From: Escherichia coli
GTDB lineage: Bacteria; Pseudomonadota; Gammaproteobacteria; Enterobacterales; Enterobacteriaceae
Length of the DNA stretch: 64,000 bases
Direction: 5' to 3' (one strand)
Assembly (NCBI RefSeq): GCF_003018255.1
Contig: NZ_CP027440.1
Shown here: positions 13,725 to 64,000 of the stretch, piece after piece
Position numbering within the stretch: position 1 is the stretch's first letter
Layout: each line of letters opens with the position of its first letter
Program-made: the position numbers and the translations under genes
Notes under the pieces: model-generated
Seen by the model: the letters and a program-made list of their open reading frames with translations, nothing else
The model's database searches: none
What the model was told of the DNA's origin: nothing

Positions 13725-13915
13725 CTGGTGTTAATACCCGATCTTCTGCGCATCCTCGCGACTAATGACAACCCTAACCCAGCTCTATGTGGGTAAAGCC
13801 TCTCATTAGCCGCGCGAACCTCTGCAGCGGAAGATCATTCATAGCAACAATACATTAGTTTCCAGTGAATTGCTGCCGTCAGCTTGAAAAAAGGGGCCAC
13901 TCAGGCCCCCTTTTC
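13725..13915 (+). ncRNA. sraG: Possible SraG (PsrO) sRNA antisense to the pnp leader
   Basis: Recalled location of SraG in the rpsO-pnp intergenic region on the opposite strand; plus-strand hairpin ggggccactcaggcccc + TTTT at 13893..13914 would give its 3' end; 5' end not determined. Confidence 0.3.
13886..13914. terminator. Bidirectional hairpin terminator (rpsO terminator)
   Basis: aaaaaaggggccactcaggcccccttttct: GC stem flanked by A-run and T-run. Confidence 0.75.
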
Positions 13916-13930
13916 TGAAACTCGCAAGAA

Positions 13931-14296
<366 letters not shown>

Positions 14297-15740: not shown

Positions 15741-15771
15741 TTAATTTCAGGTGGAAGGGCTGTTCACGTTG

Positions 15772-15845
15772 GCCTGATAAGACGCGCCAGCGTCGCATCA
15801 GGCAATCCATGCCGGATGCGGCGTAAACGCCTTATCCCGCATGGA
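15772..15845. repeat. REP/BIME element
   Basis: gcctgataagacgcgccagcgtcgcatcaggc and gccggatgcggcgtaaacgccttatcccgc match the REP consensus. Confidence 0.65.
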
Positions 15846-20522: not shown

Positions 20523-20545
20523 GCCCACCCCCAAGACATAAAAAA

Positions 20546-20608
20546 AGGGCCTAAAGCCCAGTTATTCTGTAGTCAGATAACAAAAAACCCCGATAAATCG
20601 GGGCTTTA
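20546..20608 (-). terminator. Two tandem hairpin/U-run structures between metY and rimP
   Basis: Minus strand gggctttaggccc + U-run and agccccgatttatcggggtttttt. Confidence 0.5.
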
Positions 20609-20728
20609 TATAACTGAACCCTATAACCGCAACTGCGGTCTGGAGCACTTTCCAGAAGGATTTTTTCAAATCCCACTACGAAGGCCGAAGTCTTCACAGT
20701 ATATTTGAAAAAGGACTCTAAGGGAAAG

Positions 20729-31321: not shown

Positions 31322-31358
31322 GCAAAAAAATACCGACCCGGGTACAAGTCCCAGGTCA
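31322..31358 (-). promoter_or_regulatory. graL: Leader terminator in greA 5' region (GraL-type attenuator)
   Basis: Minus strand: imperfect stem ACCUGGG/CCCGGGU followed by a U7 run, about 100 nt upstream of the greA ATG; coordinates approximate. Confidence 0.4.
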
Positions 31359-31476
31359 GCTACAATTCACATTTTGATAGTCATTTTACCCTGAAGTTCC
31401 CGAAGGGTCATCGTTTACTTTATAGGGCGTTGCGCCGTAGTATGACGGCTCGATTCCAGGTTGTTAGCGCGAGATT

Positions 31477-32920: not shown

Positions 32921-32946
32921 AACCCCGGCACATGGCCGGGGTTTTG
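32921..32946. terminator. Bidirectional terminator between dacB and obgE
   Basis: ccccggc-acatg-gccgggg followed by tttt. Confidence 0.7.
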
Positions 32947-32950
32947 CTGA

Positions 32951-51454: not shown

Positions 51455-52179
51455 TCCAGCTGGTGCTGTTGCATAAACGACTCACCGCCTAACTGATACA
51501 TCTGCCGTAAAATCCACGCCTGACGGCTACGCACGTAGCCCGATGGCGCGGAGACTTTGAAACGAAGTGGATTAGGTAATACAGCAGCCAGTAATGCAGC
51601 TTCCGAGCGGGTAAGTTTGCTCGCGGGTTTGTGGAAATAACGTTGTGCCGCAGCTTCGACGCCAAACACACCGTCGCCAAATTCGGCGATATTCAGGTAA
51701 ACCGTCAGGATACGCTTTTTGCTCCAGACAGTTTCTATCCCCAGCGTTAATCCAGCTTCCAGCCCTTTTCGAACCCAGCTACGCCCATCCCATAAAAAGA
51801 GATTTTTGGCTGTCTGCTGAGAAATCGTTGACGCACCGCGAATACGGTTTTCATTGCGCTCGTTGTGGGCCAGGGCTTGCTCAATGGAGGCGACATCAAA
51901 GCCCCAGTGCTCAGGAAACTTCTGATCTTCTGCGGCAATCACCGCCAGTCCCATCCACGGCGAAATTTGATCCATACTGACCCAGTCAGAATGTGCCACG
52001 TAACGAAAATTGCCATGCAGCCAGGCGCTGACTTGTCGCTCGGCCATTACCGCTGAGAAAGGAACAGGCGCAACGCTAAACAACGCGATGCCCCCGCCCC
52101 AGAAAACGGCGAGGACAACCATTAACCGCAGAAGAAAACGGCGAACGAAACTAAACACCGTTAAGCGGCTTTTACTCAT
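51451..52179 (-). CDS. mtgA: Monofunctional peptidoglycan glycosyltransferase MtgA
   Basis: Track ORF, 242 aa; GT51 motifs ([16 protein letters not shown]). Confidence 0.96.
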
Positions 52180-52829
52180 TCAGCCAGAACCAGCACGCGG
52201 GAAACCAGCTTATCAATGCCGCTCGCCGCTTCTGCAATGTTCTGCGCCAGCATATATGCCGGGGTGGTGACAATCTTATTGTCTTCATCAACCACGATAT
52301 CATCGACAGGACATGGCACATGCTCCGCGCCCATCTCTTCCAGCACTTCTGCGGTATCGATATCAGTACCGATGGTCAAACGCAGCGGGAAATCGAAAAT
52401 TTTCGGCAGCATCGCCGGGGCAATACACATAAAACCAAGCGGTTTTCCGGCCTGATGCATCGCTTGTGCCAGCGCCTTTAATTCACGGTCAACGGTGCAT
52501 TCGCTACCAAGACTGGCAAAATTGCTTAAATTCTTCGCCGCGCCAAAACCCCCCGGCACAATCAACGCATCCAGTTCAGCGGCATCGGCCTGGGCCAGAG
52601 GACGGATTTCACCGCGCGTTATTCGTGCCGCTTCAATCAGCACATTGCGCGTTTCCGTCATCGCTTCGCCCGTTAAATGGTTGATAACATCAACCTGCTG
52701 CTTATCCGGTGCAAAGCAGACCGCCTGCGCACCGCTGCGTGAAATAGCTAACAACGTCAACACCGCTTCATGAATTTCAGAACCGTCATAGACGCCGCAT
52801 CCGCTCAGAATTACGCCAATTTTCTTCAT
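52176..52829 (-). CDS. elbB: Glyoxalase ElbB (DJ-1/PfpI superfamily)
   Basis: Track ORF 52176..52838 trimmed to ATG 52829 ([16 protein letters not shown]...), 217 aa. Confidence 0.93.
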
Positions 52830-52946
52830 TGTGATCATCCTTTCGCAATTGACTGAAACACATTAATTTTTTTAATAAAAATGCTACGCATCACACATTT
52901 AACTGATTCATGTAACAAATCATTTAAGTTTTGCTATCTTAACTGC

Positions 52947-53067
52947 GTGCGGCCTGAAAAACAGTGCTGTGCCCTTGTAACTCATCATAATAATTTACGG
53001 CGCAGCCAAGATTTCCCTGGTGTTGGCGCAGTATTCGCGCACCCCGGTCTAGCCGGGGTCATTTTTT
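52947..53067 (+). ncRNA. arcZ: ArcZ (SraH/RyhA) sRNA
   Basis: Sequence matches recalled ArcZ: gtgcggcctgaaaaacagtgctgtgccc...acggcgcagccaagatttccctggtgttggcgcagtattcgcgcaccccggtctagccggggtcatttttt; terminator hairpin plus T6 overlaps the arcB stop on the opposite strand; 5' end approximate. Confidence 0.75.
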
Positions 53068-55395
53068 AGTGGCTTTTGCCACCCACGCTTTCAGCACTTC
53101 TACGTCGTGACGCCACTCTTCTTTCATCTCTTCAATCCATTCACCGACGTTATCTTCCCAGGCAGGAAGGTCAGGAGACTGAATTTGCTGACCCAGCTGT
53201 TGCAGATGGCGTAACCCCACTGACCCCGCCGCACCTTTAATTTTATGTCCTTCCTCAACAATGCCTTTTTTATCCTGCGCCGTCAGATTCGACTCCAGCA
53301 CGCTGACATAGCCCGGCATCATCTTCTCAAACACCGCTAACCCGTCGGTGATCAGCTTCGGTCCTACAAGTGCGAGATACTGTTCCAGCATGGGAATATC
53401 GAGCAATGCTTCTGATTTACTGTTCTCTTCTGTCGTCACCGTACTCTCCTCATCATCCTGGGTATCCCAGAATTTCTTGATCATCGCGGTTAGCGCCGGA
53501 ACCGAAAGCGGCTTACTCAGCACATCATCCATTCCAGCATTGAGGTACTCTTGTTTGTCTTTCAGCACGTTAGCGGTTAAGGCCACCAGCGGCGGTAAAT
53601 CCTCGCGCGGATAACGCTTCGTCAGTTCACGAGAGATATCCAGCCCGGTCATATCTGGCAACTGAATATCCAGCAACACCAGGTCGTATTCGCCCGGTTT
53701 AAACATCTCCAGCGCCGCCTTGCCGGTCATGGCGACATCAACGCTGTTACCTAATTTTTCCAGCACAGAACGCGCAACAATCACGTTCAGTTCAATGTCT
53801 TCCACCAGCAGCACATTCAGCGCCGGTAAAGGCATATCGTCTTCATCAAACGCATCATCGACCTCTTCTGCTACCGACGGTGCGTGGATCGTCAACGTAA
53901 AGGTTGAACCTTTGCCCTGTTCGCTGGTAACCGTAATATCGCCGCCCATATTTTTCGCCAGACGACGAGAAACGGCCAGACCAATACCGGTGCCGGTGGC
54001 AGGTTTACCGCCATGACTGTCTTTCACCTGGTAATACATGGCGAAAATTTTATCCAGCTCATCCTGCGGAATGCCGATACCAGAGTCTTCCACTTCAAAA
54101 TGCAGCATATCGCCTTCATCGTAGCGCACGCGCACGGTAACCTGGCCTTGCTGGGTGAATTTGACGGCGTTACTGATGAGATTCCACAGGATCTGCCGTA
54201 AACGCGTCCCGTCGGTAATGACCTGATGCGGTAATGGCAGCGTAGGCTCCAGGTTAAAGCGCAATCCTTTTTGTTGCGCCTGCAATGCGGAAAGATTTTC
54301 CAGATCGGCAAGGAAGCTGGTGAAATCAACCGGCTGATTATCAAGCTGGACCTTACGCCGTTCCATCTTATCCATGTCGATAATATCGTTGAAGATATTC
54401 CCGAGCGTGACGGCCGAAACATGGATGGTTTTGAGATATTTTTCCTGCTCGGCGGTGAGTTCGGTATCCAGCAGAATGCGGCTCAGGCCGACGATACCAT
54501 TCAGCGGTGTACGCAATTCGTGACTGATGGTGGAGATAAACGTCGTTTTGTCGCGGCTGGCCCGTTCAAGCGCATCCTGATACCGCTTACGCTCGGTAAT
54601 GTCGCGACCAAAGCCCATCAAACCGTGACGTTTACCCACGCGGTCGTAGTACGGCACTTTACGGATTTCAAAGCAGGCTTTGCGTCCGTCGGGATAATCC
54701 AGCCACTGCTCATAGGTCAGTGACACATTATGACGGAACACTTTTTCATCGGTTTCAATGACTTTCGCAGCGGCTTCCGGTGAGTAAACATCAGCAGGTT
54801 TCAGATGAACCAGTTGTTTTTCGCTTTTTCCGGTCAGCAGCTCCATCGCGCGGTTACAGCCGGAAAACTCTTTATCTTCGTTACGATAAAAAACCAGGTC
54901 GGGTGAAGCGTCAAGGAAGGAACGTAAGAATGAGGATTGCTGCTCGAGCTGAATTTGTGTCTCTTCGCGCTCTTTGATTTCAATTTTCAGTTGGCCGAAG
55001 GTTTCCTGCAGTTCTGCTTCCGCTTTTTCACGAACGGCGATTTCCTGATTTAGCTGGGCAATATTATCTTTTAACTGAACGTTGAGGCTCAAATCGCGCT
55101 CGCGCATCTCCTCCAGTTTTTGCACCAGTCGTGACAGACGTTGTCGTGACTCCTCCAGTTGCTCGACGACCACCGATAGAAAGTAGACCGCCCACGGCGT
55201 AATCAGCAAACCAAAGAAGATAGAACGAATAACATCAATGCTTTCGACCTGACCATGCAGCACCATGGTTACCGCCATTTGTACCACAATGGCAAGAACG
55301 ACGAGGGCCAGCGCCAGTAACATTGAGAAGCGCACCAGACCTAACTTCATCATCAGGTCAACATAATACTGCGCCAGCAGACGAATTTGCTTCAT
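53059..55395 (-). CDS. arcB: Aerobic respiration control sensor kinase ArcB
   Basis: Track ORF, 778 aa; H-box ISHELRTP; receiver and HPt domains. Confidence 0.97.
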   Translation of the reverse strand: MKQIRLLAQYYVDLMMKLGLVRFSMLLALALVVLAIVVQMAVTMVLHGQVESIDVIRSIFFGLLITPWAVYFLSVVVEQLEESRQRLSRLVQKLEEMRERDLSLNVQLKDNIAQLNQEIAVREKAEAELQETFGQLKIEIKEREETQIQLEQQSSFLRSFLDASPDLVFYRNEDKEFSGCNRAMELLTGKSEKQLVHLKPADVYSPEAAAKVIETDEKVFRHNVSLTYEQWLDYPDGRKACFEIRKVPYYDRVGKRHGLMGFGRDITERKRYQDALERASRDKTTFISTISHELRTPLNGIVGLSRILLDTELTAEQEKYLKTIHVSAVTLGNIFNDIIDMDKMERRKVQLDNQPVDFTSFLADLENLSALQAQQKGLRFNLEPTLPLPHQVITDGTRLRQILWNLISNAVKFTQQGQVTVRVRYDEGDMLHFEVEDSGIGIPQDELDKIFAMYYQVKDSHGGKPATGTGIGLAVSRRLAKNMGGDITVTSEQGKGSTFTLTIHAPSVAEEVDDAFDEDDMPLPALNVLLVEDIELNVIVARSVLEKLGNSVDVAMTGKAALEMFKPGEYDLVLLDIQLPDMTGLDISRELTKRYPREDLPPLVALTANVLKDKQEYLNAGMDDVLSKPLSVPALTAMIKKFWDTQDDEESTVTTEENSKSEALLDIPMLEQYLALVGPKLITDGLAVFEKMMPGYVSVLESNLTAQDKKGIVEEGHKIKGAAGSVGLRHLQQLGQQIQSPDLPAWEDNVGEWIEEMKEEWRHDVEVLKAWVAKATKK

Positions 55396-62986: not shown

Positions 62987-63168
62987 GCCTGTCCCAGCGC
63001 CGCCTCCTCAGAAAAGAGTCGGCGCTGAAATTCTCCTTTCTTTCTGGAAAGCGCCTCGCATAATCTGAAGAAAACCAATGTAATACGCTCATCTGGATTG
63101 TTACCGGTAGATGCCCGGCGTATAGCTGATTCCATTATTCAACGCAGCGCCATATAAAGGGACAGATA

Positions 63169-64000
63169 ATGGAATCGCTCTCAGAGAGAACCTCAACAGG
63201 CTACCAGCAAATCCACGACGGTATTATTCACCTGGTCGATAGCGCCCGGACGGAAACGGTACGTAGCGTTAACGCGCTGATGACCGCGACATACTGGGAA
63301 ATTGGCCGACGAATTGTCGAATTTGAACAAGGTGGCGAGGCCAGGGCTGCGTATGGTGCGCAGCTAATCAAGCGACTATCAAAGGATTTAAGTCTAAGGT
63401 ATAAGCGTGGGTTCTCTGCAAAAAACTTACGCCAAATGAGGCTTTTTTACCTCTTTTTTCAACATGTTGAAATTCGCCAGACAGTGTCTGGCGAATTAAC
63501 ACCATTGGGAATTCCGCAGACACCATCTGCAGAATTCCCATCGGCAAAGATTTGGCAGACGCTGTCTGCCAAATCTTTCCCCCTGCCCTGGTCCACCTAC
63601 GTCCGTTTACTTTCCGTTAAAAACCCTGATGCCCGCAGCTTTTATGAAAAAGAGACGCTCCGCTGTGGTTGGTCTGTCCGCCAGCTAGAGCGGCAAATTA
63701 CGACCCAATTTTATGAGCGAACACTACTGTCACATGACAAATCAGCCATGCTGCAACAACACGCTCCTGCCGAGATGCATATTCTTCCGCAACAGGCGAT
63801 ACGCGATCCCTTTGTGCTCGAATTTCTGGAGTTGAAAGATGAATACTCAGAATCTGATTTTGAGGAGGCGCTGATCAACCACCTGATGGATTTCATGCTG
63901 GAACTTGGGGATGATTTTGCCTTTGTTGGTCGGCAGCGAAGGTTACGCATTGATGACAACTGGTTTCGGGTCGATCTGCTGTTTTTCCACCGCCGTTTAC
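63169..64000 (+). CDS. DUF1016/YhcG-like PDDEXK-nuclease-family protein (partial; 3' end beyond window)
   Basis: Own translation from ATG about 63169, open to window end: MESLSERTSTGYQQIHDGIIHLVDSARTETVRSVNALMTATYWEIGRRIVEFEQGGEARAAYGAQLIKRLS...PWSTYVRLLSV...IRDPFVLEFLELKDEYSESDFEEALINHLMDFMLELGDDFAFVGRQRRLRIDDNWFRVDLLFFHRRL; absent from track because it has no stop in the window. Confidence 0.7.
   Translation, partial: MESLSERTSTGYQQIHDGIIHLVDSARTETVRSVNALMTATYWEIGRRIVEFEQGGEARAAYGAQLIKRLSKDLSLRYKRGFSAKNLRQMRLFYLFFQHVEIRQTVSGELTPLGIPQTPSAEFPSAKIWQTLSAKSFPLPWSTYVRLLSVKNPDARSFYEKETLRCGWSVRQLERQITTQFYERTLLSHDKSAMLQQHAPAEMHILPQQAIRDPFVLEFLELKDEYSESDFEEALINHLMDFMLELGDDFAFVGRQRRLRIDDNWFRVDLLFFHRRL
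63471..63577 (+). repeat. Three consecutive hairpin-forming palindromic units inside the DUF1016 coding sequence
   Basis: aattcgccagaca-g-tgtctggcgaatt (perfect 13-bp arms); ggaattccgcagac-acc-atctgcagaattcc (14-bp arms, 2 mismatches); aagatttggcagac-gct-gtctgccaaatctt (perfect 14-bp arms); coordinates approximate. Confidence 0.8.

Follow-up and report, generated by a model that had tools for sequence, protein, structure and literature searches.

The arcZ small RNA gene of an Escherichia coli genome and its nine-nucleotide terminator-tail overlap with the arcB stop codon

According to the literature, ArcZ activates the translation of rpoS: it pairs with the inhibitory stem in the rpoS leader, on the upstream arm, in the manner of DsrA and RprA, which are likewise Hfq-dependent and open the same target region by an anti-antisense mechanism (PMC4152358). 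DsrA and RprA are, however, encoded at different loci by genes unrelated to arcZ, lack a partner gene in cis-antisense, and do not arise by comparable RNase E maturation of a longer precursor. ArcZ is processed by RNase E, and its targets are paired only by the resulting 3′ fragment of 56 nt; flhDC, mutS, and other genes are repressed by ArcZ (PMC11331407, PMC4152358). The RNase E-dependent release of a stable 3′ fragment carrying the terminator and the Hfq-binding tail is shared with MicL and other sRNAs derived from 3′ ends (PMC11331407). In contrast to these, ArcZ has its own promoter instead of being cut from an mRNA, and its tail overlaps a convergent coding sequence. It has also been described as a cis-encoded 3′-end antisense RNA against arcB, whose mRNA is thought to destabilise ArcZ (PMC11331407, PMC4152358). 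Convergent bidirectional terminators resemble the arcZ site in that a single GC hairpin stands between two convergent transcription units; at arcZ, however, the U-tract and the mapped 3′ end are found on the plus-strand side only. ArcZ itself, the arcB overlap, the processing, and the role in the oxygen-sensing/RpoS network are already known, since 2001, and were reviewed in 2024.

The locus described here lies in a window of 64,000 nucleotides of E. coli DNA, which is the whole stretch that was analysed. In comparison with K-12 ArcZ (RF00081, b4450), the promoter, synteny, RNase E motif, seed, terminator, and 9-nt arcB overlap are all the same, no difference occurs within the gene, and the one upstream SNP, at position 52884, is a common natural variant. 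The plus-strand segment 52947–53067 is thus practically certain to be arcZ, the gene for the Hfq-dependent sRNA ArcZ of E. coli. Nothing that was found contradicts this identification, and the weak points touch the mechanism only.

When all 64 kb of the window were searched with cmscan against Rfam 15, with the gathering thresholds as cut-offs, an RF00081 (ArcZ) match emerged at 52947–53054 (+) with a score of 120.8 bits against a gathering threshold of 66 (E-value 4.1e-27), spanning positions 1–106 of the 106-position model without truncation. The Rfam model ends within the terminator hairpin, and the true 3′ end of ArcZ lies beyond 53054. The primary transcript (SraH/RyhA), 121 nt at 52947–53067 (+), is identical to curated MG1655 arcZ (b4450) at 121 of 121 nucleotides. 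The first-pass annotation, made from the letters alone, had read the plus strand here as ArcZ convergent with arcB and had named a covariance-model search as the way to check it; the full-length match far over the gathering threshold, the complete identity, and the K-12 synteny all bear this out, and the limits that it gave coincide exactly with those of the curated MG1655 gene. It had also called the element a known one, in agreement with the literature, in which the overlap, the processing, the activation of rpoS, and the mutual repression of ArcZ and ArcB are already described. Its remark that ORF-based annotation misses the gene holds for the RefSeq records annotated by PGAP, which leave arcZ unmarked: those shown have only arcB or nothing under the arcZ match, whereas curated MG1655 carries an ncRNA feature.

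According to the curated MG1655 annotation, the arcZ ncRNA occupies 3350577..3350697 (+) and arcB (b3210) 3350689..3353025 (−), with an overlap of 9 nt, and the geometry of the two genes in the window is the same, down to the 9-nt overlap. Here, the ORF list and the RefSeq annotation place arcB, which encodes a sensor histidine kinase of 778 aa and is convergent with arcZ, at 53059–55395 (−). The elbB gene at 52176–52829 (−), taken from the ORF list and annotation, is the downstream neighbour of arcB and has the same orientation. ArcZ is placed antisense in the 229-bp spacer between arcB and elbB, and this elbB-arcZ-arcB synteny matches K-12. Among complete E. coli genomes, arcZ is single-copy in 5416 of 5426, and 5395 of these 5416 carry a gene at least 99% identical to it. 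The window as a whole is 98.2–98.5% identical to K-12 and therefore belongs to a different E. coli lineage. A comparison of 262 nt around arcZ revealed a single difference from K-12, a C in place of G at 52884, which is position −63 relative to the arcZ start. This C was considered as a strain-specific promoter mutation and rejected, since it recurs in further E. coli genomes whose sequence matches at 100% identity.

The arcZ promoter (52912–52940, +), read from the sequence and the cross-species alignment, consists of a −35-like GTAACA (52912–52917), a 17-nt spacer, and an extended −10 element TGcTATCTT (52932–52940), which ends 6 nt upstream of the transcription start. The start, G 52947, equals the annotated start of MG1655 arcZ. 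In the alignment on the start site, TTTGCTATCTT is kept in all 50 loci except those of Photorhabdus/Xenorhabdus, which have TTTGCTATGTT. A generic sigma-70 scan of 52600–53400 called no promoter, because the extended −10 promoter of arcZ scores only 8 of 12 matches. The same alignment reveals a conserved block, TCACACATTTAACTGATTCATGTAACAAA, at 52891–52919 (+), which is nearly invariant in about 50 Enterobacteriaceae/Photorhabdus loci and represents a candidate regulator-binding region. As for ArcA, a search with the consensus GTTAATTAAATGTTA at up to 3 mismatches found no ArcA box at the arcZ promoter or anywhere in the window. Mandin and Gottesman (2010) is said to be the primary paper on the ArcAB/ArcZ loop. 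The binding of ArcA-P at arcZ rests on one primary paper, and the ChIP study of Park et al. 2013 (PMC3798270) reported no ArcA site upstream of arcZ. The strongly conserved block at 52891–52919 could be a non-canonical ArcA site.

Within the transcript, the Rfam consensus structure gives a 5′ stem-loop at 52966–53006 (+), in which GCTGTGCC (52966–52973) pairs with GGCGCAGC (52999–53006). This is the first stem of the consensus and stands just upstream of the RNase E site. In an alignment of 109 sequences from the loci listed in the cross-species scan described below, 7 of its 8 pairs are changed on both sides. MAFFT, however, puts the stem out of register in sequences of the Erwinia/Pantoea type, which lowers the paired fraction to 73.6%, and an alignment-free duplex calculation was used instead. 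According to this calculation, the duplex of the two arms has an energy of −15.3 kcal/mol versus −9.1 kcal/mol for shuffled 5′ arms and is better in 106 of the 109 listed sequences; the pairing holds despite 73 distinct 3′-arm sequences among them.

A putative RNase E site, GA|UUU (consensus RN|WUU), occupies 53010–53014 (+), as suggested by the motif and by the position given in PMC11331407. The predicted cut falls between 53011 and 53012, and counting 56 nt back from 53067 likewise leads to 53012. In 104 of the 109 listed species UUU stands before CCCUGG, with GUU in the other 5. The predicted processed ArcZ of 56 nt, the active Hfq-bound form according to the literature (PMC11331407, PMC4152358), would extend over 53012–53067 (+). 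The seed CCCUGGUGUUGGCGCA is present exactly at 53015–53030, directly after the RN|WUU motif, and a small hairpin, GCGC-AGUAUUC-GCGC, occupies 53026–53040. G 53028, which is the site of a known loss-of-function G-to-A allele 17 nt past the cut, is intact.

The transcript ends in an intrinsic terminator hairpin, ACCCCGG-TCTAG-CCGGGGT, at 53041–53059 (+), with a stem of 8 pairs (6 of them GC), a loop of 3, and CATTTTTT after it. A consensus terminator scan of 52600–53400 found one terminator-like site, on the plus strand, and the MFE fold of 52947–53067 gives the same hairpin. The ArcB C-terminus reads ...AKATKK* in the ORF translation; the TGA stop of arcB corresponds to 53059–53061, and the codons of Lys777 and Lys778 to 53062–53067, the complement of the ArcZ T6 tract. 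According to the ORF coordinates, the terminator tail, and the MG1655 annotation, the two genes thus share 9 nt (53059–53067) that are used on both strands. On the plus strand this overlap reads U-CA-UUUUUU and forms the ArcZ terminator and Hfq-binding tail, the role of Hfq being taken from the literature, and on the minus strand it reads AAA AAA TGA, i.e., Lys777-Lys778-stop of arcB. The hairpin is located immediately 3′ of the arcB stop, so that only its last stem base and the CA-T6 tail are shared with arcB. The first-pass annotation had let both the hairpin and the T6 overlap the end of arcB; the overlap of the T6 tail with the stop and the Lys codons is correct, but the hairpin itself lies outside the arcB coding sequence.

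A scan of 100,044 species genomes with a core pattern returned at least 120 loci, all of the listed ones in Enterobacterales; the core was the search pattern, and its invariance in this set holds by construction and is not evidence. Among the matches listed, 119 of 120 loci have the coding sequence for the ArcB C-terminus a short way downstream, on the other strand. In 102 of the 118 scorable species among these matches, the arcB stop comes directly after the hairpin's GGGG; the overlap amounts to 9 nt in 16 of these species, to 10 nt in 42, and to 11 nt in 44. ArcB ends with Lys-Lys in 103 of the 118. In all 119 scored loci on the list, the hairpin is separated from the T-run by either TCA (88) or TTA (31). 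As for the terminator helix, 96.9% of the cells are paired in the 109-sequence alignment of listed loci, two of its pairs switch from G-C to A-U in 22 and 19 of these sequences with none left unpaired, and controls with a slid partner all collapse to 28–50% paired.

In the 16 listed exceptions, which belong mostly to Pantoea and Mixta and also to Pluralibacter, Morganella, and Chimaeribacter, the arcB stop has moved 6–68 nt away or, in one of them (L045), is placed 13 nt before the hairpin end. The tail of UCA plus U5–9 after the hairpin is unchanged in these 16 species. A shorter ArcB C-terminus that has no overlap with ArcZ was observed in Pantoea/Mixta and a few other genera, with UCA plus U7–9 still downstream of the hairpin; loci with a shortened ArcB include L019, L030, L032, L035, L041, L052, L072, L087, L096, and L106.

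Published 3′-end maps of MG1655 agree with the position of the terminator. Term-seq (Adams et al. 2021, PMC7815308 supplement 1) reports a plus-strand 3′ end at 3350696, which equals position 53066 of the window, within the T6 tract, where the K-12 sequence is identical; this end has three entries in the file and is classed as arcZ-internal and arcB-antisense (PMC7815308). The Term-seq lists run by coordinate and give the two strands together, and at the depth and conditions used they hold no minus-strand 3′ ends from mtgA to about 17–23 kb further on (PMC7815308); therefore, no defined 3′ end of the arcB mRNA was detected. The terminator scan likewise called no minus-strand terminator in 52600–53400. 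In the minus-strand reading, A6 stands before the hairpin and GCGCGAAUACUGCGCC after it, the latter being a second hairpin that has no U-run. Thus, having no minus-strand U-tract, the hairpin is unidirectional by sequence, and arcB has no intrinsic terminator there. The transcripts of arcB probably extend across the region antisense to arcZ or end by another route, as far as can be read from the DNA, and transcripts that span this region would make the cis-antisense interaction possible. The genes arcB, elbB, and mtgA are all on the minus strand, and neither a minus-strand terminator-like site nor a Term-seq 3′ end is found between arcB and elbB. Either the transcription of arcB continues into elbB-mtgA, or elbB has a promoter that diverges from the arcZ promoter and lies in the region of the latter or next to it.

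In DirectRNA-seq data obtained in the presence and absence of bicyclomycin (PMC7815308 supplement 2), a region of Rho-dependent termination antisense to arcB is listed on the plus strand. It corresponds to approximately 53068–53831 (+) of the window (MG1655 3350698–3351461), with a peak at 3351461, a Rho score of 15.2, and 20 downstream reads without versus 418 with bicyclomycin (PMC7815308). This position, about 760 nt past the ArcZ 3′ end, is approximate, because the 800-nt upstream counting window includes the ArcZ end. The signal possibly represents read-through of the ArcZ terminator, which would give a long antisense RNA to arcB. A joint reading, according to which ArcZ is the dominant constraint on the dual-coding overlap and the cis-repression of arcB works partly via this read-through, is tentative and in our view rather doubtful. 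It would also account for the Lys-Lys-stop of ArcB, since AAA-AAA-TRA is the complement of the U-YA-U6 tail of ArcZ.

Bidirectional terminators are often common to convergent genes, and the hairpin might be the terminator of arcB or one that both genes have in common, with a position that reflects arcB biology. It begins one base past the arcB stop codon on the arcB strand, and its minus-strand fold is just as good. The minus strand has, however, no U-tract, with A6 before the hairpin and GCGCGAAUACUGCGCC after it, no terminator is called there in 52600–53400, and Term-seq has only a plus-strand 3′ end at this site. Moreover, the hairpin and UCA plus U5–9 are kept in the 16 listed species in which the arcB stop has moved, and the constraint therefore comes from ArcZ. 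An origin of the hairpin in arcB biology is thus very unlikely, and we assign the terminator to ArcZ.

Two further explanations concern the plus-strand gene itself. A small protein could be encoded there, either by a 62-aa ORF at 52881..53069 or by a 40-codon frame that starts from GTG at +1 and is open from the first base of the transcript to a TAG at 53067–53069, just past the T-tract. However, only 28 of the 109 listed species keep this frame open throughout the 5′ region, the transcript lengths of 120–125 nt differ by non-multiples of 3, the 5′ half of ArcZ evolves as a covarying stem and not as codons, and the active molecule is the 56-nt 3′ fragment (PMC11331407), all of which leaves a coding function with hardly any probability. 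As for a defective copy of the gene, RNase E processing is indeed blocked by G-to-A or G-to-U changes that occur naturally in Dickeya solani as well as in certain strains of Salmonella and Yersinia (PMC10168573, PMC11331407). The possibility that the window carries such an inactive allele is negligible in our estimation: all 121 nt are identical to the functional K-12 allele, including G 53028, and the only local difference from K-12 is the C versus G at 52884, a polymorphism common to other E. coli. The preferred reading is that of an intact arcZ gene that acts as an RNA. Separately, the 62-aa ORF at 52881–53069 (+) spans the arcZ promoter and all of arcZ; it is an artefact and might be annotated as a gene by mistake.

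According to the literature, Hfq would bind the 121-nt primary transcript and RNase E would release 53012–53067, after which the exposed seed of the 56-nt fragment may pair with target mRNAs and open the rpoS leader stem. In a crude, unconstrained duplexfold calculation, the 56-nt ArcZ and positions −200 to +30 of rpoS gave −39.5 kcal/mol for a duplex that includes the known GGGGAAA site, and 635 of 1000 shuffles were as good in the same crude calculation. Upstream of these steps, ArcA-P is described as repressing arcZ at low oxygen, and ArcZ and arcB mRNA would antagonise each other, resulting in a mutual-repression switch. To this scheme of the literature our analysis would add that the hairpin gives arcB no intrinsic terminator, and we infer that arcB RNA may run antisense to arcZ.

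Elsewhere in the window, further Rfam matches above the gathering thresholds were found at 13743–13914 (+), 14144–14258 (−), 15771–15841 (−), 20540–20640 (−), and 31325–31446 (−). They comprise the SraG sRNA (162 bits, opposite the pnp/rpsO region), the S15 leader, naRNA4/CssrE, the rimP leader, and the greA leader. The window also contains two tRNAs, metY and leuU by position, and both tRNAs as well as these Rfam matches are known K-12 features. At about 32941–32948, between dacB and obgE, approximately 146 bp of K-12 (MG1655 3330427–3330579 region) are absent; this segment is probably a K-12-only repetitive extragenic element. At the end of the window (62988–64000), similarity to K-12 ends with the end of gltD, which is directly followed by yhcG, encoding a PDDEXK nuclease-domain protein, and the K-12 segment gltF-yhcA..F is absent from this strain after gltD. 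The gltD-yhcG arrangement, with at least 80% of the query covered, occurs in 3350 E. coli genomes and is a known variable spot.

In comparison with the published description of ArcZ, two points go slightly beyond the literature consulted, namely the cross-species count of the arcB stop against the terminator tail and the hint of Rho-terminated plus-strand antisense RNA, and neither changes the classification. As long as arcZ is unmarked, readers of ORF-only annotation meet an unexplained terminator at the arcB stop together with a spurious 62-aa ORF. As for the family, the fraction of listed species in which the arcB stop abuts the hairpin puts a number on what the review states qualitatively.
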